Below, in pieces: positions 4,398 to 61,893 of a stretch of DNA of 64,000 nucleotides. Position 1 is the stretch's first letter, and each line of letters opens with the position of its first letter. Source of the DNA: Burkholderiales bacterium (GTDB taxonomy: Bacteria; Pseudomonadota; Gammaproteobacteria; Burkholderiales; SG8-41); the NCBI GenBank assembly GCA_019749945.1, contig JAIEPF010000024.1, positions 14,436 to 78,435 on the forward strand, written 5' to 3'. The notes beneath the pieces were generated by a model that was given only the letters and a program-made list of their open reading frames with translations, was not told the DNA's origin and searched no databases. The position numbers and the translations under genes were made by a program.

Positions 4398-4598
4398 GGC
4401 ATTACTCCTTGATGAACAAGCCCCGATGCTACCGCACCACTGCCATTCGCGTTTGCCGCATGCCGCGATATGGACAGACGCGTTGCAAGTCACCGGTAAA
4501 TCATCACATCTTGCGTGCTAACATCGGCGCGTTTTCCGCCGCAATACGGCAGCAAGCGGCGGCATCGTGACTGCGAATTGCAGTGCAGCAGAAGCAGT

Positions 4599-4636
4599 CA
4601 TAAAAATATCAATAAAATCAATTATTTATAATAATT
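4599..4636 (+). repeat. AT-rich dispersed element, copy E1
   Basis: cataaaaatatcaataaaatcaattatttataataatt (3 G/C in 38 nt). Matches rc of copy E7 at 34/40 positions. Ends 20 nt before the SMP-30 gene ATG. Confidence 0.8.
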
Positions 4637-9699: not shown

Positions 9700-10974
9700 T
9701 CAGGCCCGCGGCTGACCCGGCATGCCGACAAAGGCAAAATCCACCTCCGGCGCCTTGCCGGAAACGATGTCGGCAATCGCTTTTCCTGAACCGCAGGCGT
9801 GGGTCCAGCCCAAGGTGCCGTGCCCGGTATCGAGATAAAGCTTGGGATATTTTGTTTTGCCGATATACGGCACGTTGGACGGCGTCGCCGGCCGCAGCCC
9901 CGTCCAGTAGCCGGCCTGCCGGACATCGCCCGCGCCCGGGAACAACTCCTGCGTGCGGCGGATGATGGCCTGGCAACGCACCTCATTCAGCGCGAGGTCG
10001 TAACCGTTCAGCTCGCAGGTGCCGGCGATGCGCAGGCGGTCGCCGAGCCGTGAATACACCAGTTTGTATTCGTCATCGGTCAGGCTGACCTGATAGGCAC
10101 GCGTCGCATCGGCAACGGGCATGGTCACTGAATAACCCTTGGCCGGATAAATCGACAGCCGGATGCCCAGCGGCGCCAGCAGCTGCGGACTGTAACTGCC
10201 CAGCGCGACCACATAGGCATCACCGATGATGGTCGAAGCGCGACCATCCGGTCCGGTGACAGCCACTCCGCTGACCTCGCCCCCGGCCAGCGCAATATGG
10301 GTAATGTTGTGGCCATACAAAAACCGCACGCCGGATTTTTCGCACAAGGCTGCCAGCCGCTGCGTAAACAGGTGCGCGTCGCCGGATTCATCCGACGGCG
10401 TCAGGCTGCCGCCGGCAATTTTGTGGCGTGCCTGCGCCAGCGCCGGCTCGATCGCCACGCATTCATCCGGCGTTTTCATCTCGAGTTCGCAACCGAACTC
10501 GCGCATGATGCGTGCCGGCTCCTGCGCCGCGTCAAAGGCCTCCTGGCTGGTGTAAAAATGCAGGATGCCGCGTTCAAGATGGTCATACTCGATGCCGGTT
10601 CCGGCGCGCAGTTCACGCAGCAGGCCGCGGCTGTAGAGTCCGAGATTGACCAACTGGATGATGTTGTGCCGCGTGCGTGCCGGTGTGCATTCGCGCAGGA
10701 ATTGCAGGCACCACCGCCATTGCCGCAGATCGGCGCGCGGCCGGAACAGCAGCGGCGCGTCTTCTCTGAACATCCATTGCAGCACCTTCAGCGGCGCGCC
10801 GGGATTGGCCCAGGGCTCGGCATGGCTGACGGAAATCTGTCCGCCGTTGGCGAAACTGGTTTCGAGCCCTGCCGCCGGTTGACGTTCGATCACGGTGACT
10901 TGATGTCCCGCCCCGGCCAGAAACCACGCGGCCGCAGTGCCGACGACGCCGGCACCGAGTACGATGACCCTCAT
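9700..10974 (-). CDS. dadA: FAD-dependent D-amino-acid dehydrogenase (DadA-like)
   Basis: 424 aa. MRVIVLGAGVVGTAAAWFLAGAGHQVTVIERQ dinucleotide fold and GHGTLGWT near the C-terminus. Confidence 0.85.
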   Translation of the reverse strand: MRVIVLGAGVVGTAAAWFLAGAGHQVTVIERQPAAGLETSFANGGQISVSHAEPWANPGAPLKVLQWMFREDAPLLFRPRADLRQWRWCLQFLRECTPARTRHNIIQLVNLGLYSRGLLRELRAGTGIEYDHLERGILHFYTSQEAFDAAQEPARIMREFGCELEMKTPDECVAIEPALAQARHKIAGGSLTPSDESGDAHLFTQRLAALCEKSGVRFLYGHNITHIALAGGEVSGVAVTGPDGRASTIIGDAYVVALGSYSPQLLAPLGIRLSIYPAKGYSVTMPVADATRAYQVSLTDDEYKLVYSRLGDRLRIAGTCELNGYDLALNEVRCQAIIRRTQELFPGAGDVRQAGYWTGLRPATPSNVPYIGKTKYPKLYLDTGHGTLGWTHACGSGKAIADIVSGKAPEVDFAFVGMPGQPRA

Positions 10975-10990: not shown

Positions 10991-11215
10991 GCAAAAAGAC
11001 TCAGGACGGAGCTGTTCAGCTCCGCGCCGCCCTCGCTGTCCTTTTACCTGAGAGTTTTGCGAACCAGGGTTCGCGTGCCCCTTCGGTGGACCTTGCCGGT
11101 TTCCCGGTGGTCACTCTCCAGATCGGCTGCTGCTGTCTGCAGTAAATGAGCCTGAGCGATCATGAGGGTTTACGCCTTCGGCGGGGATTACGGGAATCCC
11201 GCTCTCCTGCAGACC
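10991..11215 (-). promoter_or_regulatory. tandem glycine riboswitch with terminator-type expression platform
   Basis: Minus-strand read. Aptamer 1 is CTGCAGGAGAG...GCCGAAGGCGTAA...CTCAGGCTCATTTACTGCAG. Aptamer 2 is CTGGAGAG...CACCGAAGGGGCA...CTCTCAGGTAAAAGGACAG. These are followed by ...CGTCCTGAGTCTTTTTGC, then 16 nt to the dadA ATG. Confidence 0.85.
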
Positions 11216-11221
11216 ATTGAT

Positions 11222-13787: not shown

Positions 13788-13822
13788 TGTGGTCGTAGTA
13801 CAGATAGGCAAAATATTGCGAA

Positions 13823-13899
13823 AGTATATAAACTATTGATTTTAAAAGAAATTTTTATTAATTACCTGGTTACCTAATAACTTAGTTACTTATTAATAT
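13823..13899. repeat. AT-rich dispersed element, composite copy E2
   Basis: tatataaactattgattttaaaagaaatttttattaat plus oppositely oriented partial units (aataacttag, ttacttattaatat). Overlaps the last four codons and stop of gabD. Confidence 0.7.
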
Positions 13900-20684: not shown

Positions 20685-20760
20685 GCCCTGGTAGCTCAGT
20701 GGATAGAGCAGTCCCCTCCTAAGGGACAGGTCGGACGTTCGATTCGTCTCCAGGGCGCCA
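20685..20760 (+). tRNA. tRNA-Arg (anticodon CCT)
   Basis: Manual cloverleaf. Acceptor GCCCTGG/CCAGGGC, D-arm GCTC..GAGC, anticodon stem GTCCC/GGGAC with loop CTCCTAA, T-arm GGACG TTCGATT CGTCT, and encoded CCA. TATAAT at 20671-20676. Confidence 0.95.
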
Positions 20761-23400: not shown

Positions 23401-24687
23401 TCAGATGCCGGCCAGCTTGGAATTCGCGGCAGCGAGGCGTTCGACGAGGATGCGCAGGTAGGTGCGATCAAAATTGAGCCGGCAGATTTCCGAGGCGTGC
23501 TGCAGCGCCTTGATGCTGATCTTGATCATGCGCACGTCGGTTGCCGCCACGACGTCGGCGGAGCGCGTACCGCCCGCCTCGCCTAGATAAGCCATCTCGC
23601 CGATCGATTCTCCGGCCTTGAGCAAACTCAGCAACAGCCGGCGCTTGCGCAGCACCCGCGCCTCGCCTGAGACCAGGATGCAGAAAAAGTCGCCCGGATC
23701 GCCTTCGTTCATGATGACTTCATCCTTCGCAACATCCACCCACTCGGAAAAACGCAGCACCTCCCACAGTTCGACGTCGCCGAAGGACTTGAAAAAAGAC
23801 AGGGTGCGCAGAATGTTGAATTTCTCGGTATCAAGCACGCCGTGTTTGGGCAGCGGCGCACCGGAAGCAATGGCAGCCAGGTCATTGGCAAACTGCTCCC
23901 AGCCCATGTAACGCACGGCCTGGTCGCGCGCCATGGCGCGGCTCACCACCAGATCAAGCTCGGTGGGCACGTCCTGGCGGAATTCAGAAGGCAGCGGCGG
24001 ATCGTCATTGAGCACCTGATTCGCCAGGCCGGCGATGTTGGTGGCGCTGAACGGCAGGCGGCCGGTGAGCAGCTGGAACATCACCACCCCCAGCGCGTAA
24101 ATGTCGGTCTGCAGGTTGACCGGTTTGTTCATGTGCTGCTCCGGCGACATGTAGGCCGGTGTGCCGATGCCGTCAACCACCGTGCGTTCGGTCAGCAGCA
24201 GCGCCGCGGAGCCGAAATCCGTGACCTTGATGTCGGTGTTGTCCTTGACCAGGATGTTGGCGGGTTTGATGTCGCGGTGGATCACGCCCAGCCGTGACGC
24301 AAAATCCAGCGCCTTGGCGCATTTGAACACCACTTCGATGACATCACCCAGCGCCAGCAGGTTGTCGCCGCGGGTGAAACGCTGCAGCGTGCCGCCCGAC
24401 ACATATTCCATCACGATATAGGCGTTGTCCTCGTCGGCCACCGCGTCGTAGATTTCGACGATATGCGGATGGGTCAGCTTGCCGGCCAGCGAGGCTTCGG
24501 TGAGGAACAGGTGGTGCAGCAGCTGGCCGCGGGTTTCGTCCTTCAGCGCGCCCTGCGACACCAGCTTGATCGCCACTTCGCGGGAATTGAAGGCGTCGCG
24601 TGCCAGGAACACGGTGCTGGTCGCGCCATCGCCGAGTTTCTTGACGATTTCGTACTTGCCGATCTTGTTGACGACCGATTCCGCCAT
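23401..24687 (-). CDS. Hanks-type Ser/Thr protein kinase fused to a C-terminal cyclic-nucleotide-binding domain
   Basis: 428 aa. GDGATSTV, VAIK, HRDIKPANILV, DFG and GTPAYMSPE, followed by a CAP-like FFCILVSGEARV...GEMAYL...RSADVVA. Confidence 0.9.
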   Translation of the reverse strand: MAESVVNKIGKYEIVKKLGDGATSTVFLARDAFNSREVAIKLVSQGALKDETRGQLLHHLFLTEASLAGKLTHPHIVEIYDAVADEDNAYIVMEYVSGGTLQRFTRGDNLLALGDVIEVVFKCAKALDFASRLGVIHRDIKPANILVKDNTDIKVTDFGSAALLLTERTVVDGIGTPAYMSPEQHMNKPVNLQTDIYALGVVMFQLLTGRLPFSATNIAGLANQVLNDDPPLPSEFRQDVPTELDLVVSRAMARDQAVRYMGWEQFANDLAAIASGAPLPKHGVLDTEKFNILRTLSFFKSFGDVELWEVLRFSEWVDVAKDEVIMNEGDPGDFFCILVSGEARVLRKRRLLLSLLKAGESIGEMAYLGEAGGTRSADVVAATDVRMIKISIKALQHASEICRLNFDRTYLRILVERLAAANSKLAGI

Positions 24688-24829: not shown

Positions 24830-27800
24830 ATGGCCCGCATGACTGCAGCAGACACGATCAACCGGCGCTGGCAATTCTGGATCGACCGCGGCGGCACCTT
24901 CACTGACATCGTCGCCCGCCGCCCCGACGGCGGCTTGGTCACGCACAAGCTGCTCTCGGAAGACCCCGCGCGTTATCGTGATGCTGCGCTGGCCGGCATC
25001 CGCGACCTGCTGGGCCTGGCCCGCGACGCCGCCATTCCGGCCGGACAGATCGATGCCGTGCGCATGGGCACCACGGTGGCGACCAATGCCCTGCTCGAAC
25101 GCCGCGGCGAAGGCACCGCGCTGTTCATCACCCGCGGTTTCGGTGATGCGCTGCGCATCGCCTGGCAGAACCGCCCGCATATCTTCGACCGCCATATCGT
25201 GCTGCCGGACCTGCTCTACGAGACTGTCCGGGAAGTCGATGAACGCGTCGGCGCGCATGGCGATATCATCCGCGCGCCGGATGCCGCGGTGCTGCGCCAC
25301 GACCTCGCCGCTGCAAAGGCGCAGGGTTATCGCTCGGTCGCCATTGTGTTCATGCACGGCTACCGTTATCCGGTGCATGAACAACTCGCCGCCGCCCTCG
25401 CCCGGGAATGCGGCTTCGAACAGATTTCGGTATCCCACGAAGTCAGCCCGCTGATGAAACTGGTGGCCCGCGGTGACACCACCGTGGTCGATGCCTATCT
25501 GACGCCGGTGCTGCGGCGATATGTCGAACAGCTCGGAAACGAATTGCCGGGCACCCGCCTGCTGTTCATGCAGTCGAGCGGCGGCCTGACCGACGCGGGA
25601 CATTTCCGCGGCAAGGACAGCATCCTATCCGGCCCGGCGGGCGGCATCGTCGGCGCAGTGCGCACGGCCCTGAACGCCGGCTGTGAACACATCATCGGTT
25701 TCGACATGGGCGGCACCTCCACCGATGTCGCGCATTTTGCCGGGCACGACCTCGCTGCGCTGGAACGCACCTTCGATGCGCAGGTCGCCGGCGTACGCGT
25801 GCGCGCGCCGATGCTGGCCATCCACACCGTTGCCGCCGGCGGCGGATCGATCCCGCATTTTGACGGCGCACGCATGCGCGTCGGCCCTGATTCCGCGGGC
25901 GCCGATCCCGGCCCGGCCTGTTACGGCAAGGGCGGCCCGCTGACCATCACCGACTGCAATGTGCTGCTTGGCAAAATCCAGCCGGCGTTTTTTCCAAGGG
26001 TGTTCGGCGCCAGTGGCGACCAGCCGTTGGATGCGACCGCAGCCGAAAACCTATTTGCTGCACTGCACGATAAAATTATCAATAAAAACAATAACTTAGT
26101 GTCAATCGCTGCCATGGCCGAGGGTTATGTGCAAATCGCCGTCGAAAACATGGCCAACGCGATCAAAAAAATCTCGGTGCAGCGCGGCCACGACGTCACG
26201 GGATACACGCTGGCCTGTTTTGGCGGTGCCGCGGGCCAGCATGCCTGCCGTGTCGCCGATGCACTGGGCATGCCGCATATCTTCATCCATCCGCTGGCGG
26301 GTGTGCTGTCAGCGTACGGCATGGGCCTTGCCGACATCACGGCGATGCGCGAAGCCGCGGTCGAAGCGCCGCTGGATGCTGCAGCCATTGCGGCGCTTGA
26401 TGTGCAGGTCACAGCGCTCGGCACTGCTGCGCGCGAAGACGTCATCGCACAGGGGGTTGCGAGTGCAGCCATCCAGTTACACACAAGGGCGCACATCAAA
26501 TACGCCGGAACCGACAGTACGCTGACCGTGCCCTATGGTTCCGCAGCATCCATGCAGCAGGCCTTCATAGAACTGTATCTGCAGCGTTACAGTTTCCTGA
26601 TGCCGGAACGCGCGCTGGTCATTGAAGCGATCTCGGCGGAAGCCGTGGGCCATGGCGCCGGCGACACCGAAACCATAACGGCCGCATCCGCAACCCGGGC
26701 CCCCGCTTCTGTCGCCCGAACGAAGATGTACAGCAATGGCGCATGGCACGACGTGTCGGTCTATAAACGCGAAACACTGGCGCCCGGCCACAACATCACC
26801 GGCCCCGCCATCATCGCCGAAGCCAATGCCACCACGGTGATCGAACCCGGCTGGCAGGCTGAAGTCACGCCGCGCAATGACCTGCTGCTGAGCCGTCGCG
26901 AACCGCGCCGCGCGGCACAGGCCGGTACCACCGCGGATCCGGTGATGCTCGAGGTTTTCAACAATCTCTACATGTCGATCGCCGAACAGATGGGTGCAAC
27001 GCTGGCCAACACGGCTTATTCGGTCAACATCAAGGAGCGGCTGGATTTTTCCTGCGCGCTGTTCGATGCCCAGGGCAATCTGATCGCCAATGCGCCGCAC
27101 ATGCCCGTGCATCTGGGCTCGATGGGCGAAAGTGTCAAAGCCGTGATCAATGCCAACCGCGGCCGCATGGCGCCGGGTGATGCGTGGATGCTGAATGATC
27201 CCTATGCGGGAGGCACCCACCTGCCCGACATCACGGTGATCACGCCGGTGTTCGATGCCGGGGGCCGCGACGTGCTGTTCTATACCGGGTCGCGCGGCCA
27301 CCATGCCGACGTCGGCGGCATCACGCCCGGTTCGATGCCGCCCGACAGCCGCCACATCGACGATGAAGGCGTGCTGATTTCGAATTTTCTGCTGGTGCAG
27401 CAGGGCCGGCTGCGCGAGACCGAAACCCGCATGCTGTTTGCCTCGGCACGCCATCCGGCGCGCAACATCGACCAGAACATCGCCGACCTGCGCGCAATGA
27501 TCGCCGCCAACCACAAGGGCGCGCAGGAACTGGAACGCATGGTCGGGCACTTCGGTCTCGACGTGGTCACCGCCTACATGCGCCATGTGCAGGACAACGC
27601 CGAGGAAGCCGTGCGCCGCGTCATCGGCAAACTGCGCGACGGCAGCTTCAGTTACGAAATGGACCACGGCGCAATCATCAAGGTTGCGATCCGCGTCGAT
27701 GCCCAGGCGCGCAGCGCGGTCATCGATTTCACCGGCACATCAAAACAGGGCGAGGACAATTTCAACGCACCCTTTGCCGTGACCATGGCGGCGGTGCTGT

Positions 27801-28465
27801 ATGTTTTCCGCACCCTGGTCGATGACGACATCCCGCTCAATGCCGGCTGCCTGAAACCGCTGACGGTGATCGTGCCCGAAGGCTCCCTGCTCAACCCGCG
27901 CCATCCTGCCGCGGTGGTCGCCGGCAACGTCGAGACTTCGCAATGCGTCACCGATGCGCTCTACGGCGCGCTGGGCGCGATGGGGGCGTCGCAGGGCACG
28001 ATGAACAATTTCACCTTCGGCAACGAACGCCACCAGTATTACGAAACCATCGCCGGTGGTTCCGGCGCCGGTGAAGGCTTCAATGGCACCGCCTGCGTGC
28101 AGACTCACATGACCAATTCGCGGCTGACCGATCCCGAGGTGCTGGAATGGCGTTACCCGGTGCGCCTCGACAGCTTCGCCATACGCCGCGGCAGCGGCGG
28201 CGCCGGGCGCTGGCGCGGCGGTGACGGCGCCGTACGTCGTCTGCAGTTTCTTGAACCGATGACCGCCGCCATCCTGTCCGGACACCGCCGCGTGCCGCCG
28301 TACGGCATGGCCGGCGGAGAGCCGGGACAGCCCGGGCGCAACAGTGTGCTGCGCGCCGACGGCCCGGTTGTCGCCCTCGACGCCTGCGCCAGTGTCGCCA
28401 TGCAGCCGGGCGATATCTTCATCATTGAAACGCCCGGCGGCGGCGGCTACGGAACGGTAGAATGA
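24830..28465 (+). CDS. 5-oxoprolinase / hydantoinase A-B fusion (ATP-hydrolysing)
   Basis: 1211 aa. [14 protein letters not shown]-terminus, HyuA-like first half and HyuB-like second half ([12 protein letters not shown]). Confidence 0.9.
26069..26106 (+). repeat. AT-rich dispersed element, copy E3 (inside the oxoprolinase ORF, in frame)
   Basis: gataaaattatcaataaaaacaataacttagtgtcaat carries the exact 12-mer aataaaaacaat shared with E5 and E7. Translated as [12 protein letters not shown]. Confidence 0.75.
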
Positions 28466-28511
28466 CCAAAATCGCAAATCACCAAAAACAAAATCCCATA
28501 ACAGGTTACCC

Positions 28512-29045
28512 ATGGCCCGTGTCCCGCTGATCGGCGAGGAGCGCAGCGACCTCGCCCCCTTCATAACACGCGTCAAAAAAGAGCGCGGCAAGCTGATCAA
28601 TCTCTACCGCGTACTGATGAACAGCCCGGCCATCGCCGCGGGCTGGCTCGATTTCAACAGCATCGTGCGTTACAAAACCACGCTGGATCCGGCGCTGCGC
28701 GAAATGATCATCCTGCGCGTCTCCATCCTCAACGGCGCCGAATACCAGGCGCGCATCCACGGCGCGAGCCATGCGCTAGAGGCGGGATTGAGCGCGGAGC
28801 AGATCGAAGCCCTGGGCGACTGGGTGAACAGCAAATTGTTCAGCACGGCACAACGCGCCGCCCTTGCCTGGACCGATGCAATGACCCAGCAGATCAATGT
28901 GCCCGACACGCTGCACAACGAACTGCAGCGCCACTTCGACGATCAGGCCGTGGTCGAAATCACCGTGCTCGCCGGCGCCTACAACATGCATACCCGGGTC
29001 GCACGCGCGCTGCGCATCGAATCCGAAACCCCGGGCAAGGCCTGA
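28512..29045 (+). CDS. carboxymuconolactone decarboxylase (AhpD-like) family protein
   Basis: 177 aa. REMIILRVSILNGAEYQ pattern. Confidence 0.8.
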   Translation: MARVPLIGEERSDLAPFITRVKKERGKLINLYRVLMNSPAIAAGWLDFNSIVRYKTTLDPALREMIILRVSILNGAEYQARIHGASHALEAGLSAEQIEALGDWVNSKLFSTAQRAALAWTDAMTQQINVPDTLHNELQRHFDDQAVVEITVLAGAYNMHTRVARALRIESETPGKA

Positions 29046-29047
29046 TC

Positions 29048-30127
29048 ATGGGCAAAGCCGTCCTGGTTGTAGAAGAAGACCCCTTCCTGCGCCTGATCGG
29101 CGTCACGCTGGACCCCGCCACCAGCGCGGAACGCATCGCCGCCTTTGCCGATTTTTTTGCCCATGATCTGCCGGACTTCGACGGCTGGCTGCGCCGGCTG
29201 CGCGGCCGCCTGCCAAAGTTGTTTCCGGCGGAAGTCCGACTGGTCGACAGCAGCGAAGCGCTGCGCAGTGCACTGGCGGACGCCGATTTTGCCGTCGTGG
29301 AATCGCTGCCCTTTGGCGCCGCGGAACTGGCTGCCGCACCGCGCCTGCGGGCGGTGCAGAAATACGGGGCCATCCCCAACAACATCGACGCCGCCGCCTG
29401 TGCCGCACGCAACGTTCCCGTACTGACCATACGCCGCCGTGCCAACATCGCCTGCGCCGAACACAGCATCGCGCTGATGCTCGGCCTGTCACGACAGTTG
29501 CAGAGGACCATCAACCGTATCAGCACACAATCACTGCAAGCCGCAGGATTTTCACCGCGCACCTACGACCGCCGGCATACGGCGAACTCCAACTGGGCGC
29601 GTGTGCCGAACATCCGCCTGCTGCACGAAACCACGCTGGGCATTGTCGGTCTCGGTGAAATCGGCCGCGAGGTCGCGACCCGCGCCGCGGCCTTCGGCAT
29701 GAACATCCTCTACCATCAGCGCAGGCGCCAGCCCGCCAGTGTAGAAACGGCGCACCACGCACACTATGCCGACTTCGACACGCTGCTCGAAAGCAGCGAC
29801 TGGGTGGTGATCTGCCTGCCCGGCAATGCCAATACGCGCCACTTGTTCGACGGCCTGCGCCTGGCGCGGATGAAACCGGGCGCACGGCTGATCAACATCT
29901 CGCGTCCGGAAATCGTCGACCGCGATGCGCTGATCGCCGCATTGCGCTCCGGCCATCTCGGCGGCTTCGCGCTCGATCCCTTGTATGAAGCGCCGGGCCG
30001 CGACGACGACGAGCTGCTGCAATTCAACAACGTGCTGATCACCCCGCACATCGCCGCCCAGCCGCGTTTCAACGCACTGGACGACATCACCGACCTGATC
30101 ACCGGGCTGGAGAAAAAATGGTCATGA
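29048..30127 (+). CDS. D-isomer-specific 2-hydroxyacid dehydrogenase family protein
   Basis: 359 aa. GIVGLGEIGREVA NAD fold, INISRPEIVD and TPHIAA. Confidence 0.85.
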   Translation: MGKAVLVVEEDPFLRLIGVTLDPATSAERIAAFADFFAHDLPDFDGWLRRLRGRLPKLFPAEVRLVDSSEALRSALADADFAVVESLPFGAAELAAAPRLRAVQKYGAIPNNIDAAACAARNVPVLTIRRRANIACAEHSIALMLGLSRQLQRTINRISTQSLQAAGFSPRTYDRRHTANSNWARVPNIRLLHETTLGIVGLGEIGREVATRAAAFGMNILYHQRRRQPASVETAHHAHYADFDTLLESSDWVVICLPGNANTRHLFDGLRLARMKPGARLINISRPEIVDRDALIAALRSGHLGGFALDPLYEAPGRDDDELLQFNNVLITPHIAAQPRFNALDDITDLITGLEKKWS

Positions 30128-31095
30128 ATAAAACCTCACTCATAGTCGCCGCTGCCCTGCTCGCCGGTCATTCATTTTCAGTGCCGGCCGCCGACACCTG
30201 GCCCAGCCGCCCGATCCGCCTGGTTGCGCCCTTCCCCGCGGGCAGCTCCGTCGATGCCGCCGTGCGCGTGATCACGCCGCGAATGACCGAATCGCTGGGT
30301 CAGCCCATTGTCATCGACAACCGCGCCGGCGCCGGCGGCACCATCGGCGCGGAAGTCGGCGCACGCGCCGCACCCGACGGCTACACGCTGGCCGGCGGCA
30401 CCACCAGCACCCATGCGCTGGCCAAAGTGCTTAACCCGAAACTGGCTTATGACCCGCAGCGCGATTTTGTGCCGATCACGCTGATCGGCCACCTGCCGTA
30501 CATCCTCGCCGTGCATCCGGGCGTCGCCGCCAACAACATGCAGGAACTGATCGCGCTCGCGCGCACAAAACCGGGCGAGATCCGCTACACGACCGTTGGC
30601 GACACCAGCATGGCGCGCTTGGGCGGCGAACTGCTGTCCAATCTGGCCGGCATCAGGATCACGCCGATTGCCTACAAGAGTTCGGCGCAATCCGTGGTCG
30701 ACACCATCTCCGGCCGTATCGAACTGCAGTTCGGCACCATGGCGCCGGTGCTGCCGCATGTGCGTTCCGGCAAATTGCGCGCGCTGGCGGTGACCGGCGC
30801 GAAACGCGCGCCGGCGCTGCCCGAGGTGCCCACGGTGCAGGAATCCGGCATCAAAAATTTCGAGGTCACGCTGTGGCTGGCCGTATTCGCGCCGGCAAAA
30901 ACCCCGCGCACGATGGTCGAGCGCCTGAACCGGGAATTCACCGCGGCCATCAATACGCCCCAGGTACGCGATGCCCTGTTGCTCCAGGGGCTGCAGCCGG
31001 AAACCACGACTTCGGCGGCATTCGCCAAATACCTGGATAGCGAAATCAGCAAATGGCGCGAGGTTGCACAGAAGGCGAATCTGAAGCCGGAATGA
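30118..31095 (+). CDS. Bug family (TctC-like) substrate-binding protein
   Basis: 325 aa. Signal peptide, PIRLVAPFPAGSSVD and IDNRAGAGG. Confidence 0.9.
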   Translation: MVMNKTSLIVAAALLAGHSFSVPAADTWPSRPIRLVAPFPAGSSVDAAVRVITPRMTESLGQPIVIDNRAGAGGTIGAEVGARAAPDGYTLAGGTTSTHALAKVLNPKLAYDPQRDFVPITLIGHLPYILAVHPGVAANNMQELIALARTKPGEIRYTTVGDTSMARLGGELLSNLAGIRITPIAYKSSAQSVVDTISGRIELQFGTMAPVLPHVRSGKLRALAVTGAKRAPALPEVPTVQESGIKNFEVTLWLAVFAPAKTPRTMVERLNREFTAAINTPQVRDALLLQGLQPETTTSAAFAKYLDSEISKWREVAQKANLKPE

Positions 31096-34489: not shown

Positions 34490-34518
34490 TTGACAGTGCT
34501 GGAATACATGCTTATATT
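34490..34518 (+). promoter_or_regulatory. sigma70 promoter of hemP
   Basis: TTGACA, 17 nt, TATATT. Confidence 0.6.
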
Positions 34519-34531
34519 GATAATCATTCTC
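34513..34531. promoter_or_regulatory. Fur box overlapping the -10 element
   Basis: TATATTGATAATCATTCTC matches GATAATGATAATCATTATC at 16/19 positions. Confidence 0.7.
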
Positions 34532-34555
34532 ATTTAATAAAGGGGCCCTGCCGCC

Positions 34556-37435: not shown

Positions 37436-37478
37436 AAATATTATAAGCTATTGATTATAATAACTTTTATTCGAATTT
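37436..37478 (-). repeat. AT-rich dispersed element, copy E4
   Basis: aaatattataagctattgattataataacttttattcgaattt. Shares attataag..attg with E7 and caatag.ttata with E2. Contains the stop codon of the PrpF-like gene. Confidence 0.7.
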
Positions 37479-44145: not shown

Positions 44146-44728
44146 CTGAACTCCCTCCTGATTTCAAAAACAAGACACTGGAACGAGCCACACTTCCAGT
44201 CCGGTGTGCGGTACACCTGCTTCCACGCAATTAATTAAGGACTGGACTGCAGCAGCAGCCGGGTGCTGCTTTTCCCCCTCTGCTTATACGAATTACATTC
44301 AAGTAGTTATTAAGTATTAGCGCTTACGTATGTGTACTTACACATTACGGAACCGGACTTTACACGAAGCCCTTACTCAAACAAAGCTTTTTTGCCCCTG
44401 TCATGGTGCGGCGCACAACGTATTCCCGGGTGCAGATCGACACCGTTGCACGACGCAGAATTTGATTGCGGAAGCCGCAAATGCGGAGGCATTTATAGGG
44501 CGCAGTACTTGCGCAAGACTTACGCAAGCTTGCACATAACTGAATACAAACACTGCATACAAAATTGCACGTATGCAGTGCATCGGATGCAGCGTCCCAC
44601 CCCGAAAATCGCGGGACCATCCTTGAATGCTCGATTTGAAGGAGGGCGACGCGCCCTAATGGTGCACCCGCAAACGGTCTGCGTAACAATTCATCAGGCT
44701 GTCAGGAGCATCCTGAACCAGGGCGAGC

Positions 44729-45801: not shown

Positions 45802-46782
45802 TCAGGACCGCCCGCCCAGCACCTCCGGATTGATCATATTGACCGGCTTGCCGGCGGCGTAGGCCAGGATCTGGTCAAAAATGCTGCTGAAAATGCGCTC
45901 GTAACCCCCGCGCTCGACATAACCGATATGCGGTGTGCACACCGCATTGTCCAGCGCCAGCAGCGGGTGGCTCGCGCCGAGAACGGGTTCATCCTCGAAG
46001 ACATCGACCGCGGCCATGCCCGGCCGGCCGAGTTTGAGCGCTTTTTCCAGCGCGCCTGCCTCGATCAGGCCGGCACGGCTGGTATTGACCATCAGCGCCG
46101 TCGGTTTCATCCGCGCCAGATCCGCCGCCGAGACGATGCCGCGGGTGGCATCGATCAGGCGCAGGTGCAGCGTGATGACATCACTCTCCTCAAAAAACGC
46201 TTCCTTGCTGCGCGCTGCCGCGTAACCATCGGCTCGCGCCCGCTCCAGCGACGCTTCGCGCGCCCACACCAGCACCTTCATGCCGAAGGCCTTGCCGTAG
46301 CCTGCCACCACCGCACCGATGCGGCCGTAGCCGTAGATGCCCAGCGTCTTGCCGCGCAGACCGTAACCCACCGTCGACTGCCAGCGCCCCGCTTTGAGTG
46401 CTGCGACTTCCTGCGGAATGTTGCGCATCGCCGCGATGATCAGTCCCCAGGTCAGTTCCGCCGTCGCGTGCGAGGGCTGGCCCGGATGCAGGTTGCTGCA
46501 AAGCAGGATGCCCTGTCTGGTCAGCGCATCGACATCGACATGCGGGTACACGCTGTGGTGGCTCAGCAGTTTCAGTTTGGGCAGGCGCGCGATCAGCGGC
46601 GCGCGGATCGGCGTGCGTTCGCGGATCATCACCAGTGCTTCGGTGTCCTGCAGGCGTTGGGCCAGCGTATCGACATCCTTGGTGTGGTCGTTCCACACCG
46701 TCACCTCATGGCCCTGCAGTTTCTTGAAGCAGTCGAGCGTGCGCACGACATCCTGATAGTCATCGAGTATTGCGATTTTCAT
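45802..46782 (-). CDS. D-2-hydroxyacid dehydrogenase family protein
   Basis: MKIAILDDY..., [17 protein letters not shown] and TPHIGY. Confidence 0.85.
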
Positions 46783-46796
46783 GCTTCCCATTCCCG

Positions 46797-46834
46797 TATA
46801 TTATGTAACGTATTGTTTTTATTAATTATTTTAA
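46797..46834 (-). repeat. AT-rich dispersed element, copy E5
   Basis: tatattatgtaacgtattgtttttattaattattttaa carries the exact core attgtttttatt. Overlaps the last two codons and stop of the lyase gene and ends 6-15 nt before the next ATG. Confidence 0.8.
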
Positions 46835-48190
46835 CCAGCCGCTGGCGCGCTGCGCGTGCACGACTTCATCGACGATCTCCGGCGCGCGGCCGACATAGGT
46901 GGTCGGGTCGAGCGCCGCCTTCAATTCATCCGAAGTCAGCGCCGCCTTGACCTGCGCGTTCTGCATCAGCGCGCTCTCGAACGACACACCGTTCTCGATG
47001 CCGTGCATCGAGGCTTCGTAAACAAGGTCATGCGCCGTTTGTTTGCCGACCTTGTCCGACAGCACGAACATCACGCGCTCCGACAGCAGGAAACCGCCGA
47101 GACGGTCGAGATTCAGGCGCATCTGCTTCACATCGACATGCAGATCGCTCAGCACGTATTTCATCATCGCCAGCAGGCCGCCGGCCATCAGGCAGGATTC
47201 CGGAATCGCCTTCCATTCACCGCGCCAGCCCGAGCCGTCACGCTCGTGTTCGGTGACCATGCACTCCAGCATGAATGACGCGTTGTAACGCAAGGCGCGG
47301 CTGACGCCGACCACCGCCTCGCAGGTAGAGGGATTGCGTTTGTGCGGCATGGTCGATGAACCGACCTTGCCGGCGCTGAAGGGTTCAAACAATTCGCCGA
47401 TTTCGGTGTGTTCTAGATTGACGATCTCGTTGGCGATCTTGCCCAGTGTCGCGCTGATCAGGCCCAGCACATTGACGTATTCGGCAAAACGGTCGCGCGC
47501 CGGCTGCCAGTTGATGTCGGCCACACCCAGCCCCAGCCGCTTCATCAGACGTTTTTCCAGCTCCCTGGCCTGAGGACCGAACGAGGCCTGGGTGCCGACC
47601 GCCCCGACCATGCCGCCGACGAACATCCGCGGCTCGAGCTGGCGCAGCCGCTCGTAGTGCCGCCCCATTTCCGACAGCCAGATCGCGGCCTTGTGGCCGA
47701 AGGTGATCGGCAAGGCCTGAACGCCATGCGAGCGCCCCACCATCGGTGTCGCACGGTGCTCTTCGGCGAGTCTGGCCAGCGCATTGCCGATGGCCTTCAT
47801 GTCGCGCAGGTAAATCGCATGTGCATCCCTGATCTGCAGCATGGTGGCGGTGTCGAGCACGTCCTGCGTGGTCGGCCCGAAATGGATGTACTCGCCGTGT
47901 TCGGGTTTGCACAGCTTCTGCACCGCCTTCACCGCGGGCACCAGCGGATGCTTGATGCGACGGATCTCGGCGGCCACGGCGTTGATGTCGATTTTCGAGA
48001 TTTTGCAGTTGGCGGCGATTTCCTCGGCTGCCGCCTTGGGGATGATGCCCAGCGCCGCCTGTTCCAGCGCCAGCGCCGCCTCGAAATCCAGCCATTTCTG
48101 CACGCGGTTGTGCTCGTTGAATATGCCGCGCAGCTCCTCGGTGCTCCACAGGTGCTGAATCAGTGCGTCGTCAAATACTCCGGATGCCAT
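46826..48190 (-). CDS. class II fumarase/aspartase superfamily lyase (adenylosuccinate lyase / carboxymuconate cycloisomerase-like)
   Basis: 454 aa. HFGPTTQD and GSSTMPHKRNP signature. Confidence 0.85.
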   Translation of the reverse strand: MASGVFDDALIQHLWSTEELRGIFNEHNRVQKWLDFEAALALEQAALGIIPKAAAEEIAANCKISKIDINAVAAEIRRIKHPLVPAVKAVQKLCKPEHGEYIHFGPTTQDVLDTATMLQIRDAHAIYLRDMKAIGNALARLAEEHRATPMVGRSHGVQALPITFGHKAAIWLSEMGRHYERLRQLEPRMFVGGMVGAVGTQASFGPQARELEKRLMKRLGLGVADINWQPARDRFAEYVNVLGLISATLGKIANEIVNLEHTEIGELFEPFSAGKVGSSTMPHKRNPSTCEAVVGVSRALRYNASFMLECMVTEHERDGSGWRGEWKAIPESCLMAGGLLAMMKYVLSDLHVDVKQMRLNLDRLGGFLLSERVMFVLSDKVGKQTAHDLVYEASMHGIENGVSFESALMQNAQVKAALTSDELKAALDPTTYVGRAPEIVDEVVHAQRASGWLK

Positions 48191-50121: not shown

Positions 50122-50640
50122 ATGCCCGTCGTCCGCAGCTTTGCGCCGATTGCCGATGTATCGGCGCGTTTGCTGATCCTCGGCAGCATGCCCGGCATCG
50201 AATCGCTGCGCACAGGGCAGTATTACGCACATCCGCGCAACGCGTTCTGGCGCATCATGGGTGATCTTGTCGGCGCATCGCCCGAGATGCCCTATGCCGC
50301 ACGCACCCGCCGCCTGAAAAAAGCGGGAATCGCAGTGTGGGACGTGCTCGCGGCCTGCGCGCGTGAAGGCAGCCTTGATGCCGCTATCGACCGGCGTTCG
50401 ATCATCGCCAACGACCTGGTATCGTTTCTGGCGCGGCGGCCGGACATCCGCCATGTATTTTTCAACGGCGCCACGGCCGAGCGCTGCTTCCGGGTGCATG
50501 TGCAGCCCGCCCTGGAAGCCGGCGCCCTGAAACTTGTGCGCCTGCCCTCGACCAGTCCGGCCCATGCGGCGCGCGCCTACGCCGACAAACTGCAAGCCTG
50601 GCGGGTGATCCTGGAACCACTCGCAGAAAAACAAAAATAA
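50122..50640 (+). CDS. DNA-deoxyinosine (hypoxanthine) glycosylase, UDG superfamily
   Basis: 172 aa. LLILGSMPG..S......YYAHPRNAFW and LPSTSPA motifs. Confidence 0.7.
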   Translation: MPVVRSFAPIADVSARLLILGSMPGIESLRTGQYYAHPRNAFWRIMGDLVGASPEMPYAARTRRLKKAGIAVWDVLAACAREGSLDAAIDRRSIIANDLVSFLARRPDIRHVFFNGATAERCFRVHVQPALEAGALKLVRLPSTSPAHAARAYADKLQAWRVILEPLAEKQK

Positions 50641-50663
50641 TAAATAAAACAATAACTTACGAA
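50625..50663 (+). repeat. AT-rich dispersed element, copy E6
   Basis: agaaaaacaaaaataataaataaaacaataacttacgaa has a core one A shorter. Overlaps the last codons and stop of the glycosylase gene and abuts the EamA ATG. Confidence 0.7.
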
Positions 50664-51530
50664 ATGAACGCCCTGATTCTCGCCATGCTGGCCGCGCTGT
50701 GTTTCGGCGCCGGCATGATCACCTCGCGCGTCGGTTTGCGCCATGTCGATGCGCGCAGCGGCGCTGCGATCAGCATTCCCGTCGCGACGCTGCTGTTCGT
50801 CATCGCCGCACCGTTCACCGTCGAACTGTCCGCGTTCAACCTCACCGCCGCCCTGATTTTCGCGCTGGTCGGTCTGTTCTATCCCGCGCTGGTCACGCTG
50901 CTGACTTTCCGCGCCAATGAAGAACTCGGCCCCACCGTCACCAGCGCAATCTCGGGCACCGCACCGCTGTTCGCGATGCTCGCCGCAGCGTTGCTGCTGG
51001 GCGAGCAAATCCCGCCACAGGCGGCCATAGCGGCGCTGGGCGTCGCTGCCGGTGTTGCCCTGCTGTCCTGGCGCCCCGGCGCAACCCGGGGCCGGATGCC
51101 CGGCCGCGCGCTGGTGTGGCCCGTTGCCGGCGCCGTTGTGCGCGGCGTGGCGCAGGCCGGCGCCAAGGCCGGGCTGCTGCTGTGGGGCAATCCGTTTGCC
51201 GCCAGCGTGATCGGCTACCTGGTATCGTCCACCGCGGTGCTCGGCGCGGAAGGCCTGCGTCGCGGCGGGCGCAAGGCGGTCAGCCGCGACGGCCTGCTGT
51301 GGTTTGCCGCGACCGGCACCGTCAACGGGGCCGCAATGGTGCTGATGTATTCGGCACTCGCAATGGCGCCGGTATCAACGGTCGCACCGGTGATTGCCGC
51401 CTATCCGCTGGTCACCGCGCTGGCCAGCGCGCTGTTCCTGCGCGGTGAAAAAATCAGTGTGCAGATCATCTGCGGTGCCGTCATCACGGTCACAGCCATC
51501 ATTTACCTCGCCGCCTTCCGCACATCCTGA
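50664..51530 (+). CDS. EamA/DMT family transporter
   Basis: 288 aa with ten hydrophobic segments arranged as two EamA-like halves. Confidence 0.85.
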   Translation: MNALILAMLAALCFGAGMITSRVGLRHVDARSGAAISIPVATLLFVIAAPFTVELSAFNLTAALIFALVGLFYPALVTLLTFRANEELGPTVTSAISGTAPLFAMLAAALLLGEQIPPQAAIAALGVAAGVALLSWRPGATRGRMPGRALVWPVAGAVVRGVAQAGAKAGLLLWGNPFAASVIGYLVSSTAVLGAEGLRRGGRKAVSRDGLLWFAATGTVNGAAMVLMYSALAMAPVSTVAPVIAAYPLVTALASALFLRGEKISVQIICGAVITVTAIIYLAAFRTS

Positions 51531-57136: not shown

Positions 57137-57287
57137 TTTGTTGTATCCGGCTATAGTAACTATAATGCCCCTGCACATGCAATGCCGGCACTTCGGGTAT
57201 GCAGCGCAGGAAACCGGCGGGGAGCGCAGTGTCGGGCCGCCGGCCGGCCCGCGGCAAAACTGTCCAATAAATCACGGTGTTAATGCC

Positions 57288-61598: not shown

Positions 61599-61638
61599 GT
61601 ATTAATTATAAGTAATTGTTTTTATTCATATTTTTATG
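61599..61638 (-). repeat. AT-rich dispersed element, copy E7
   Basis: gtattaattataagtaattgtttttattcatatttttatg (5 G/C in 40 nt). Its rc matches E1 at 34/40. Overlaps the stop of the dtd remnant and lies about 84 nt upstream of the htpX ATG. Confidence 0.8.
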
Positions 61639-61893
61639 GCTGCCAGCGCCTCAACAAACGCCGCGATGCCGCCTCCGCCACCGGCGCGCAACTGCAGCCA
61701 GAATGTCACAGGGCCGTCATTGGTCAGCGTGACCTGCATGTCCGCGCCGAAACGGGCCCGCAGCCACCTGCGCATGGACACGCCGCGCCTGGACCACGAC
61801 ATGCTCAAACAGCTTCCGGCCCGGCTCCGGTGGCGCCCACGTTTACGCCTTCAATCACGACCTGCGCCAGGCTGACCCGTTGCAGCAGGGCGA
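61626..61893 (-). pseudogene. dtd: D-aminoacyl-tRNA deacylase (dtd) remnant with an internal deletion and frameshifts
   Basis: Three frames carry Dtd pieces. They are [26 protein letters not shown] (N-terminus), [19 protein letters not shown], and [22 protein letters not shown] (C-terminal signature). Only about 270 bp are present, whereas about 450 bp are expected. Confidence 0.7.

Follow-up and report, generated by a model that had tools for sequence, protein, structure and literature searches.

The 5-oxoprolinase gene described here raises the question of why a protein-coding sequence with a strong bias towards G or C at third codon positions should contain, in frame, a short run of AT-rich codons that matches an element otherwise lying between genes. 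The gene is part of a 64-kb stretch of Burkholderiales DNA, analysed over its whole length and called the window below.

An AT-rich patch inside a 5-oxoprolinase gene

The host gene, the patch and the sequence directly downstream comprise the following features:

24830..28465 (+), 5-oxoprolinase / hydantoinase A+B fusion ORF of 1211 aa (from the ORF list), host of the patch
26064..26105 (+), in-frame copy of the AT-rich element, 42-nt weight-matrix match (41.4 bits) containing most of the 26069-26107 patch
26072..26075 (+), A-tract in the 5' half of the in-gene element (AAAA in GATAAAAT), read from the sequence
26086..26098 (+), bipartite core AAACAA + TAAC + TTA (WAWCAA-N4-TTR) of the in-gene element, found in 7/7 window copies
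28466..28511 (+), decayed and GC-enriched element remnant, from the oxoprolinase stop codon to the CMD start codon (AAAAACAAAATCCCATAACAGGTTACCCATG)
28512..31095 (+), cluster 3' of the oxoprolinase gene encoding CMD, 2-hydroxyacid dehydrogenase and TctC (Pfam), syntenic across orthologous loci

The ORF has the Pfam domains Hydant_A_N (aa 16-194), Hydantoinase_A (214-505), Hydant_A_C (521-678) and Hydantoinase_B (703-1209), and its nearest database homologues, at 90% identity, are annotated as 5-oxoprolinase. The patch consists of codons 414-426 (GAT AAA ATT ATC AAT AAA AAC AAT AAC TTA GTG TCA ATC) at 26069-26107 on the forward strand; a preliminary description of the sequence gave these 13 AT-rich codons and their peptide correctly but ended them at 26106, one base short. 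GC content is 0.33-0.35 at the patch (60-nt windows) compared with ~0.65 for the gene, and the patch is the only element-like AT-rich island within a gene in the window. The idea that long genes require an internal copy is ruled out by the other long gene of the window (57138-60542, 1134 aa), which has none. As originally described, the patch is in frame and directly upstream of a conserved oxoprolinase block. The suggestion that this linker would tolerate such a segment agrees with a predicted structure in which a loop (residues 420-425) joins two helices (402-419 and 426-451; block pLDDT 82-88 over residues 401-430), and with a loop 2-6 residues shorter in distant homologues; according to the model, the loop with the patch is a permissive helix-loop-helix, surface segment. 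At the syntenic place of the 28466..28511 remnant, three other loci (L083, L087 and L094) have full element copies and L105 has a match to the core. Rfam matches in the window are a tRNA-Arg and a glycine riboswitch only.

A family of gene-boundary elements

The element has the consensus ATAAAAATAT-N-AATAAAA(A/T)CAA(T/A)NNNTTA(Y)(R) and spans ~35-40 nt (30-40 bases). Seven copies occur in the window when the in-gene patch is counted; the others are intergenic:

4594..4635 (+), copy in a divergent spacer, 28 nt upstream of the SGL/gluconolactonase start (56.8 bits)
13822..13863 (-), copy from the aldehyde dehydrogenase stop to the glyoxalase start, both genes on the minus strand (48.1 bits)
37437..37478 (-), copy from the PrpF stop codon on, filling a 44-nt convergent spacer (49.0 bits)
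46799..46840 (-), copy filling the 34-nt spacer between lyase and 2-hydroxyacid dehydrogenase, with the upstream TAA stop inside the element (53.2 bits)
50625..50666 (+), copy abutting the EamA start codon (TTACGAAATG), without a Shine-Dalgarno sequence (50.6 bits)
61602..61643 (-), copy with the upstream gene's TGA inside it, followed by TATAAT, 93 nt upstream of the M48 peptidase start (56.9 bits)

An A4-5 tract is present in the 5' half of every one of the seven window copies. The earlier claim that the patch carries the exact core of the element was correct: AATAAAAACAAT occurs without mismatch at 26081(+), 46812(-) and 61615(-) and with a single mismatch at 4611(+), four matches in the window against 0.10 expected by chance, and AATAACTTAG is found at 13876 too, with a one-mismatch copy at 50651. 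Class A copies, the patch among them, read AAACAA at the core, and class B copies (4616, 13841 and 37456) read AATCAA. On a 42-nt weight matrix derived from 19 intergenic copies only, with the patch left out, the patch scores 41.4 bits and all other non-family AT-rich islands of the window remain below 32 bits; neither composition-preserving shuffles of the patch (0/200,000) nor synonymous recodings of the window patch (0/5,000) reached its score.

Copies typically lie just 3' of the stop codon of a co-oriented gene, with 10 between co-directional pairs, 8 between convergent pairs and few (3-5) in divergent spacers. An upstream neighbour was identified for 25 intergenic copies, and in 20 of these it is co-oriented, a count that depends on a crude gene caller; copies antisense to the local operon occur at position 2530 of L112 (51.5 bits; syntenic copy at L113 6670) and 22960 of L084 (49.4 bits). 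Patch-bearing genomes have ~1 copy per 9-14 kb, and intergenic copies are kept at syntenic positions across genomes with oxoprolinases ~75-88% identical. L081 and L082 have syntenic counterparts of the 37437..37478 copy, and a copy homologous to it in sequence lies in L106, 11 nt past the stop of a co-oriented gene.

No inverted repeats were found flanking the copies, RNAalifold returned no conserved RNA structure at the element and Rfam no known RNA family there. A regulon was rejected on the grounds that the genes adjoining the copies (SGL, glyoxalase, dehydrogenase, EamA, M48, CMD, TctC and BT1) have no function in common, and an identity as a REP/BIME, MITE or Correia-type repeat on the grounds that flanking inverted repeats and conserved RNA structure are missing and the in-gene replacement is of equal length. 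A literature search for the exact motif strings yielded unrelated AT-rich organisms only, and one on synonymous constraint and AT-rich intragenic sites yielded nothing specific. Viral contigs gave 120 pattern matches, nearly all in AT-rich phages (median GC 0.35), which is consistent with chance; one viral contig of GC 0.73 (L156) has an exact ATCAATAAAAACAATGACTTAC island behind an ORF.

Conservation of the patch at silent sites

In a codon alignment of 22 non-redundant oxoprolinase orthologues (GC3 ~0.75), the patch codons AAT AAA AAC are invariant (22/22), and among 34 conserved Asn/Lys columns just four have an invariant codon, these three and one other. Leu423 is TTA in 19 and TTG in 3 of the 22, never CTN, with TTA accounting for 1.5% of Leu codons elsewhere in the gene, and Ile416 is ATA in 14 of the 22 versus 6% elsewhere. 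The patch is the lowest-GC3 nine-codon window of the gene (0.24-0.31 versus a mean of 0.75) and ranks in the top five windows for third-position conservation among the 22 orthologues. An unbiased metagenome scan at the amino-acid level (AAY AAR AAY ... NMANAI) likewise found AAT AAA AAC in 19/19 GC-rich oxoprolinase matches. On the intergenic-only matrix, the actual DNA of every orthologue scored (23/23) beats 99.8-100% of 5,000 synonymous recodings, and per-position conservation in the patch follows how informative each position is among the intergenic copies (Spearman rho 0.74 across 42 positions and 0.90 across the 14 third-codon positions). The hypervariable codons 417 and 422 coincide with N positions of the element: their amino acids are free to vary, and the nucleotides at motif positions are not. 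Judged from these alignments, the data show that the patch is retained by purifying selection on its nucleotides, not on the peptide alone, and that a lineage-specific AT-rich cis-element has a functional copy here, although function itself is something we infer. Since the patch is preserved in DNA, silent positions included, its codons would serve both the protein and a nucleic-acid signal.

An alternative interpretation is that selection acts on protein or translation only, either for the NKNNNL peptide or for a rare-codon (ATA, TTA) pause cluster aiding co-translational folding, and that the likeness to the element is coincidental. Conservation of the rare codons TTA and ATA, the modelled position of the segment between two helices and an N/K-rich loop at this site in an AT-rich marine lineage too are in its favour, but we strongly disfavour it and consider it highly improbable: AAA and AAC, which are not rare, are among the codons that never vary, codons 417/422 vary in residue while the motif nucleotides do not, synonymous recodings hardly ever and shuffles never attain the observed score, third positions track intergenic information content at rho 0.90, and the peptide is missing wherever the intergenic family is missing. 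The patch resembles conserved rare-codon clusters and synonymous-constraint regions in its local conservation of synonymous sites and rare codons across orthologues, but differs from rare-codon clusters in matching an independent intergenic family base for base and in having invariant codons that are not rare.

Two translational signals were also rejected. Programmed -1 frameshifting uses an in-frame X XXY YYZ heptamer followed by a stimulatory structure; the zero-frame T AAA AAC of the patch breaks the X rule, and no conserved structure lies downstream. A stop codon in the -1 frame (TAG) is present in the window and L081 (TTA GTG / TTA GAG) and missing from the other orthologues shown. An internal translation start, at the in-frame ATG 26112, is not conserved, the codon being GTC, CTT, GTA, ATA, CTG and others in orthologues.

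Distribution and origin

The patch is carried by >20 independent metagenome assemblies and shared by orthologues down to ~70% identity. These observations dispose of two explanations raised in the preliminary description, an assembly artefact and a recent patch of foreign recombinant DNA, and a length-changing insertion is excluded by the gap-free alignment of orthologues with and without the patch, the latter having a GC-rich segment (EIRDATGDTRTPEQ-type) of equal length. All 80 of 80 loci of other genomes have a GC-rich segment at the site, mostly of equal length and in a minority 4-6 residues shorter. Orthologues thus have the same AT-rich codons within the lineage but not outside it, so that the possibility of an ancient patch common to all orthologues holds in part; this restriction argues against recent insertion and for a selected embedded signal. 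The analysis indicates that the element entered the oxoprolinase gene by point substitutions and the use of AT-rich synonymous codons, leaving length unchanged.

In 365 kb from patch-bearing lineages, 26 intergenic copies score 35 bits or more; the 633-725 kb from other GC-rich genomes, which take in L110 and L111 as syntenic true orthologues, contain no such copy. Family and patch occur in the same lineages, genomes without the family are without patch and peptide, and in ~314 kb of coding DNA of these loci the oxoprolinase gene alone has element-like islands.

The neighbour-joining trees, on which the inference of independent origins is based, suggest more than one origin of the patch. The gene backbone of P0059/L112 clusters with ancestral-type alleles (83% bootstrap), the neighbouring gene DUF6352 concurs, and likeness to patch-bearing alleles is limited to ~45 nt; a recombination tract in L112 was rejected, its left flank being nearest its own ancestral-type relatives and only ~45 nt differing in affinity. 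Clades G1 and G2 are united in just 6% of bootstraps, and both have the post-core peptide QSI, which could reflect common descent or gene conversion of the patch only. Three further loci (L113, L114 and L115), of a sister lineage, are ancestral at site 1 and have, at a second site (aa 666-683), a conserved island that is in frame and resembles the element, with the rare codons TTA, AGA and ATA in genes of GC3 0.81-0.84 and a conserved in-frame ATG at its end, just upstream of the HyuB domain. The site-2 copy is a class B variant read in another frame than site 1. At site 1, the sense orientation and reading frame would have been forced, because, of the six reading frames of the class A sequence, a single one lacks stop codons and encodes hydrophilic, N/K-rich residues. 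NENNNL-type peptides (P0115, P0076 and P0120) were rejected as intermediates, being nested in clade G2 and representing secondary decay towards GC.

A selfish or mutational drive would account for these patterns differently, with copy-and-paste or gene conversion overwriting tolerant sequence and homogenising it, so that synonymous conservation would reflect concerted evolution. The lineage-specific, high-copy family (~1 per 9-14 kb), the ~45-nt limit of the likeness between L112 and patch-bearing alleles and the presence of the patch in non-sister gene lineages are all compatible with drive. We nevertheless consider it quite improbable: there is no length change, target duplication, terminal inverted repeat or hairpin, the ancestral sequence at site 1 has no similarity able to seed conversion, no other gene in the ~314 kb of coding DNA carries such islands, and intergenic copies are retained at syntenic positions. 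In L108 the patch decays towards GC in a genome that still has intergenic copies; homogenisation is therefore not automatic.

Comparison with known signals

The proposal that the patch is an internal regulatory site fared well as regards a nucleic-acid signal, which strong synonymous-site constraint supports, but not as regards a canonical sigma-70 promoter: no -35/-10 pair 16-18 bp apart was called, and a -10-like TATAAT follows about half of the intergenic copies, never the patch. DNA uptake sequences (DUS/USS) occur at ~1 per kb and in many genes. The element shares with them and with Chi-like oligomers the character of a lineage-specific signal accommodated by codon and residue choice, with dual-use codons, but was rejected as a member, having 7 copies in 64 kb (~1 per 9-14 kb across patch-bearing genomes), in-gene occurrence in the oxoprolinase only (one gene in ~314 kb of coding DNA) and an orientation that follows local transcription. 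In a comparison by eye, none of the ARG box, NAC, PhoP/KdpE/CpxR direct repeats, Ter, dif and boxA fits.

Candidate mechanisms

A -35-less, A-tract-assisted promoter module in which TTA opens a TATAAT -10 would make the patch an internal sense promoter driving downstream genes or a shorter transcript. About half of the intergenic copies continue as TTA|TAAT, TTA|TGAT or TTA|TATA, which is TATAAT-like in a fixed register, the geometry in L094 fits a leaderless CMD mRNA, and 3-5 copies lie in divergent spacers upstream of genes. This interpretation is improbable in our view. A promoter consensus scan calls neither the copies nor the patch, the -35 being absent, and the window's tRNA-Arg gene and Fur-box promoter have normal -35/-10 elements without the element; past the TTA of the patch there is no conserved -10 (the next codon is CAG, CAA, AAA, CAT, GTG or others), several copies have a start codon 0-4 nt from the TTA, too near for a transcription start, and 8 copies would direct transcription into a convergent gene from its 3' end.

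The element might instead act as RNA, through an unstructured A-rich, (ARN)n-like sequence (AAU AAA AAC AAU AAC) recruiting S1/30S, Hfq, an sRNA or RNase E. It would then be a Shine-Dalgarno-independent translation enhancer or a processing site at gene boundaries, and would affect mRNA decay or local ribosome behaviour within the ORF. The strong bias with transcription (20/25 copies behind a co-oriented gene, by the crude gene caller) fits this reading, as do ~10 copies with an ATG -1 to +4 nt from the TTA and without a Shine-Dalgarno sequence (such as EamA at 50664, BT1 in L083 and CMD in the window, L081 and L105), the predicted unpaired state of the patch in 19 orthologues and the conserved in-frame ATG ending the site-2 island of L113-L115. 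The distance from element to CMD ATG varies from 3 to 23 nt, which rules out a fixed promoter geometry and suits a leader element. The distal face of Hfq recognises at least 3-4 consecutive A-R-N triplets in single-stranded RNA; the patch and class A copies have 4-5 such triplets, predicted unpaired, but in class B copies the register is disrupted (AUC). We consider an RNA signal unlikely, as conserved high-scoring copies lie antisense (L112 2530 with L113 6670, and L084 22960), the 8 copies in convergent spacers serve no downstream gene, no start codon is kept 3' of the site-1 patch, and a fixed N4 spacer of variable sequence typifies protein-DNA recognition rather than base-pairing or binding of S1, Hfq or RNase E.

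The explanation that we tentatively favour, at somewhat less than even probability, is that the patch is a selected in-gene copy of the lineage-specific element, acting as an IHF-type architectural binding site. It is our best guess because the element has counterparts, in the canonical arrangement, of all four features of the canonical IHF site, defined as WATCAA near the centre, TTR 4 bp 3', AA steps ~9 bp apart and an A4-6 tract, within ~34 bp (PMC1874591). The hexamer agrees perfectly in class B copies only. The element is alike in its 5' A4-5 tract, AA steps 9 bp apart, central WA(T/A)CAA and TTR at +4, as well as in a spacer of fixed length and variable sequence, and it shares the asymmetric layout of the lambda H' site (WATCAANNNNTTR with a 5' A-tract) over ~34 bp. 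All seven window copies have the WA(T/A)CAA hexamer with TTR exactly 4 bp 3', five of the seven have AA 9 bp upstream, and complete IHF-like sites number 8.5 per 100 kb in element-bearing lineages versus 0.0 elsewhere. The TTA/TTG alternation at Leu423 matches the TTR of the IHF site, and the high-scoring antisense copies (L112 2530 and L084 22960) favour recognition of duplex DNA. In this mechanism the element would be a high-affinity duplex-DNA site, bound and bent by an IHF-type architectural protein, and at gene boundaries such sites would shape the starts and ends of transcription units, a role proposed for the IHF-binding RIB/BIME-1 repeats of Escherichia coli. Within the oxoprolinase gene (3.6 kb), the site might serve as a bend, a roadblock or a topological insulator, modulating transcription through oxoprolinase, CMD, dehydrogenase and TctC.

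RIB/RIP (BIME-1) elements of E. coli are dispersed extragenic repeats that contain an IHF site and lie where transcription units end (PMC3333891). The element is similar in being a high-copy, lineage-restricted repeat with an IHF-like consensus, located mostly past stop codons, where the adjoining genes are co-directional or convergent, and seldom between divergent ones. It differs in having neither flanking REP palindromes nor hairpins, in being ~40 nt and wholly AT-rich, and in having one copy in frame and conserved in a coding sequence.

We caution that an IHF-type protein as the trans-factor is pure inference, and several features of the element, to which binding is here predicted, depart from canonical IHF sites. 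Position 3 of the hexamer is A, not the well-conserved T, in most copies and in all site-1 patches, and the conservation of AATAAAA beside the core exceeds what IHF contacts explain. IHF is, to our knowledge, universal in Proteobacteria, so a strictly lineage-specific family requires an extra assumption, which could be the spread of a site-carrying repeat or an altered or paralogous protein. The transcription-linked orientation of the copies (20/25 co-oriented, by the crude gene caller) is not predicted by an IHF site and indicates a role at the level of transcription or RNA. There is also no evident reason why the oxoprolinase gene alone would need an internal site.

Implications

The broader picture, which we regard as possible but rather doubtful, is of an uncultured Burkholderiales lineage with an undescribed sequence-specific system, consisting of a ~40-nt AT-rich boundary element (~1 per 10 kb) and a trans-factor, for which selection would have repeatedly rewritten two surface segments of the oxoprolinase, one of them two or more times at the same codons and the other, the HyuA-HyuB linker, once, amounting to adaptive convergent dual coding. 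The case is an unusually clean example of a non-coding signal shaping a bacterial coding sequence: residues of a loop vary where a DNA motif is degenerate, synonymous positions stay fixed despite strong GC3 bias, and this solution is found again in separate lineages and at another site. The analysis further reveals a high-copy gene-boundary element in GC-rich uncultured Burkholderiales with no literature match by exact-string search, for which an IHF-type site, analogous to E. coli RIB/BIME-1 minus the palindromes, is the working hypothesis. If this hypothesis is confirmed, the patch would let the evolution of architectural or regulatory sites inside genes be followed in a natural experiment, and would call for caution in codon-optimisation and dN/dS analyses of such genes.

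An AT-rich element lies in frame within the oxoprolinase gene

The oxoprolinase gene of the window carries an in-frame copy (the patch, at site 1) of a ~40-nt AT-rich element found mostly in gene spacers.

24830-28465 (+), HyuA/HyuB-fusion 5-oxoprolinase ORF, 1211 aa
residues 16-194, Hydant_A_N (Pfam)
residues 214-505, Hydantoinase_A (Pfam)
residues 521-678, Hydant_A_C (Pfam)
residues 703-1209, Hydantoinase_B (Pfam)
26069-26107 (+), patch, codons 414-426: GAT AAA ATT ATC AAT AAA AAC AAT AAC TTA GTG TCA ATC

The codons are those of the preliminary description, but the end it gave, 26106, was one base short of the true end at 26107. GC in 60-nt windows is 0.33-0.35 at the patch versus ~0.65 gene-wide, and an AT-rich island scan of the window revealed the patch as the sole family member inside a gene. 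The element core reported for it was borne out, with the 12-mer AATAAAAACAAT exact at 26081(+), 46812(-) and 61615(-) and a one-mismatch copy at 4611(+) (total of four matches versus 0.10 expected). Island alignment gave the asymmetric family consensus ATAAAAATAT-N-AATAAAA(A/T)CAA(T/A)NNNTTA(Y)(R), and a 42-nt weight matrix built from 19 copies, intergenic only (six from the window, 13 from related loci), scored its seeds at 48-57 bits, the patch at 41.4 bits and all other, non-family AT-rich islands of the window at <32 bits. Since, in addition, 0 of 200,000 composition-preserving shuffles reached the score of the patch, its likeness to the family is specific and extends beyond composition. 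The sequence itself shows that sense orientation and frame are forced at site 1; AAT AAA AAC AAT AAC TTA is the only frame of six that is both stop-free and hydrophilic, and the antisense stop-free frame would encode the peptide KLLFLLIIL.

Constraint on the patch acts at the nucleotide level

Four syntenic orthologues (87-72% identity, GC3 0.72-0.84) keep AAT AAA AAC AA without a base change, and AAT AAA AAC was used by 19/19 GC-rich oxoprolinase matches of a metagenome scan whose pattern was set at the amino-acid level against bias (AAY AAR AAY, 57 N, AAY ATG GCN AAY GCN ATH); of the other matches, three belong to a marine lineage with AT-rich DNA and one is due to chance. Codon alignment of 22 non-redundant orthologues placed the lowest-GC3 nine-codon window of the gene at the patch (0.24-0.31 versus a mean of 0.75), which is also among the top five windows for third-position conservation (0.857 versus a mean of 0.669). 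Out of 34 conserved Asn/Lys columns, the codon is invariant at 418, 419, 420 and one other, while Leu423 is TTA in 19/22 and TTG in 3/22 (TTA elsewhere makes up 1.5% of Leu codons) and Ile416 is ATA in 14/22 versus 6% elsewhere. When synonymous recodings were sampled from each gene's own codon usage, 0-0.18% of 5,000 equalled the real DNA on the intergenic matrix in each of 23 orthologues. Conservation along the patch tracks the intergenic information profile (42 positions, Spearman rho 0.74, p = 2e-8; 14 third-codon positions, rho 0.90, p = 1e-5), the patch and intergenic consensus are identical at 23/27 core positions, and codons 417 and 422, whose amino acid is hypervariable, coincide with N positions of the element. 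It is therefore the DNA motif that sets the peptide, rather than the peptide that sets the motif.

Age, structural setting and probable repeated origin

An insertion, one of the readings proposed earlier, is contradicted by an alignment of 120 homologues with no gap at the patch: most relatives down to ~70% identity encode I-x-NKNNNLQSI and others IRDATGDTRTP, of equal length. The GC-rich 'ATGDxRTPE' type was present in 80/80 loci listed from other genomes, from Burkholderiales to Streptomyces, cyanobacteria and archaea, and is thus ancestral; the patch is lineage-specific but old. An AlphaFold model of oxoprolinase residues 1-720 (mean pLDDT 82) has the patch spanning loop 420-425 together with the adjoining ends of helices 402-419 and 426-451, and the segment is 2-6 residues shorter in distant homologues, including the solved structures 6YRA and 7HK5. 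Site 1 is thus predicted to be a permissive helix-loop-helix, in agreement with the earlier suggestion that the protein may tolerate the patch in this linker. Marine AT-rich oxoprolinases (L089, L097 and L100, GC 0.28-0.33) have KNKNKITKS at this loop (codons AAT AAA AAT AAA ATT ACT), which looks like compositional drift and is not the element motif.

In a patch-masked, outgroup-rooted neighbour-joining tree (200 bootstraps), patch-bearing alleles formed clades G1, with the window (98.5%), and G2 (100%), which were joined in 6% of replicates, and G2 identity was 0.748 to ancestral-type alleles versus 0.708 to G1. The patch-bearing protein P0059 of locus L112 clustered with ancestral-type alleles (83% bootstrap; 8/8 nearest neighbours ancestral-type), a placement also supported by its neighbour gene DUF6352; its similarity to patch-bearing alleles is limited to ~45 nt, and its patch is the best-matching of all (52.9 bits). 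The patch most probably evolved in place, more than once. The origin trees are neighbour-joining only, however, and G1 and G2 have the post-core residues QSI in common; patch-only conversion is a possible alternative to independent origins. In L108 the patch is partly decayed towards GC (CAT CAT GAA AAC AAC AAC CTA); because this decay is nested within G2, NENNNL forms are secondary, and their reading as intermediates was rejected.

Site 1 is of the ancestral type in loci L113, L114 and L115, whose oxoprolinase genes have a second in-frame AT-rich, element-like island at aa 666-683 (site 2).

L113 11998-12051 (equivalent site in L114 and L115), site-2 island, oxoprolinase gene

This island, in the Hydant_A_C/Hydantoinase_B linker (GAA TTA AAT CAT ATN GTT ATG ACR AGA), involves no length change, uses rare codons in genes of GC3 0.81-0.84 and resembles class B copies (core AATCAA; 27-35 bits). 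The island is kept in three genomes, and the in-frame ATG at its end could let the HyuB half be expressed separately.

Intergenic copies and their distribution

With orientation and context assigned by a crude gene caller, an upstream neighbour was identified for 25 intergenic copies, 20 of which directly follow the stop codon of a co-oriented gene; ~10 of these 20 have that stop codon inside their A-rich 5' arm, 0-11 nt from the core. On the downstream side, 10 copies face a start codon and 8 the end of a convergent gene, 3-5 copies occupy divergent spacers, and in several places the element is the entire spacer (34 nt at 46792-46825; 44 nt after PrpF). Syntenic copies occur after PrpF in the window, L081 and L082 (L106 has a homologous copy 11 nt past the stop of a co-oriented gene), upstream of CMD, the gene next downstream of the oxoprolinase, in L083, L087, L094 and, by core match, L105, and, in L108 and L109, behind the gene for 2-hydroxyacid dehydrogenase; the CMD leader in the window is a decayed copy. 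A small number of strong copies (L112 2530, L084 22960) run antisense to the operon around them, and the genes flanking copies are functionally unrelated.

At a threshold of 35 bits, 365 kb from patch-bearing lineages yielded 26 intergenic copies and 725 kb from the other genomes listed, 80 in number, yielded none; the few 30-34-bit matches in the latter were all in genomes of GC 0.35-0.39. GC-rich DNA from outside the clade (633 kb) gave five matches to the core regex, with no A-rich context around any of them, and in 23.6 kb each neither L110 nor L111, syntenic true orthologues with the ancestral segment, had a copy reaching 28 bits.

The AT-rich element also lies directly 5' of a TctC gene in L083 (19457-20419), and an identical AGTGGAGTAAGAAATGTTGAGTTAAAACAATCAGTTAATGAACG pair ~940 bp apart in L087, at 9410 (-) and 10347 (-), is a local duplication bearing an element-like core that abuts ATG. 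An IMG/VR contig (L156, GC 0.73) has an exact ATCAATAAAAACAATGACTTAC at 9994-10015 (-) in an isolated AT-rich island, ~58 nt past the stop of an ORF that we take, by eye only, to be a putative phage antirepressor-like (Bro-N type) gene; this may represent either a copy of the element carried by a phage or, in a phage whose host is GC-rich, an IHF-type site.

Other features of the window

11130-11219 (-), glycine riboswitch, upstream of a 424-aa gene at 9700-10974
20685-20760 (+), tRNA-Arg(CCT) gene

The tRNA promoter is an ordinary -35/-10 pair (CGGACA-17-TATAAT). At 34490-34545 a canonical TTGACA-17-TATATT promoter overlaps a Fur-box-like GATAATCATTCTCATT, and counterparts of this island precede hemP in L082 (18848-18887) and short unannotated ORFs in L083 (17869-17982). 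A terminator-like hairpin with a 12-bp stem (44550-44581, -) lies inside an AT-rich island (44536-44566) outside the element family. Divergent from the oxoprolinase is a Ser/Thr protein kinase and cyclic-nucleotide-binding domain fusion (23401-24687, -). Most of the orthologous loci examined share this arrangement, whether or not they have the patch, but it is missing from L108, L109, L113 and L114; its recurrence hints at a regulatory link. Related loci repeatedly carry TctC (Bug-family) solute-receptor genes; the window has one Pfam-confirmed (30118-31095) and several other ~325-aa ORFs TctC-like by appearance only, while the 329-aa ORF at 45802-46791 was rejected as TctC, being a 2-hydroxyacid dehydrogenase.

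A candidate mechanism

The canonical IHF site is ~34 bp long, with a central WATCAA, TTR 4 bp 3', two AA steps 9 bp apart and an A4-6 tract in its 5' half (PMC1874591). All seven copies of the window combine WA(T/A)CAA-N4-TTR with an A-tract, and five of the seven have the upstream AA step; complete IHF-type sites reach a density of 8.5 per 100 kb in element lineages versus 0.0 elsewhere. These features favour a reading at the level of duplex DNA, and by this analogy we infer that, as the most likely mechanism, the element would be bound and bent by an IHF-type protein. However, most copies, the site-1 patches among them, have A and not T at hexamer position 3, extra conserved bases beside the core exceed what IHF contacts would account for, element orientation is biased with transcription, and the family is restricted to one lineage although IHF is, as far as is known, universal in Proteobacteria.

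These four points keep two other roles viable, though less likely: an RNA-level role, as an A-rich single-stranded leader or processing signal, and, more doubtful still, a promoter role. Copies are not canonical sigma-70 promoters. They have no hairpins or terminal inverted repeats, and the element has no conserved RNA structure and matches no Rfam family. Orthologues share no start codon downstream of site 1. A slippery heptamer was also rejected, T AAA AAC being neither proper nor followed by a stimulatory structure. Exact-sequence strings retrieved no description of the family from the literature. The preliminary observation is confirmed and its interpretation supported in part: the permissive loop of the oxoprolinase has, embedded in its codons, a cis-element under selection.
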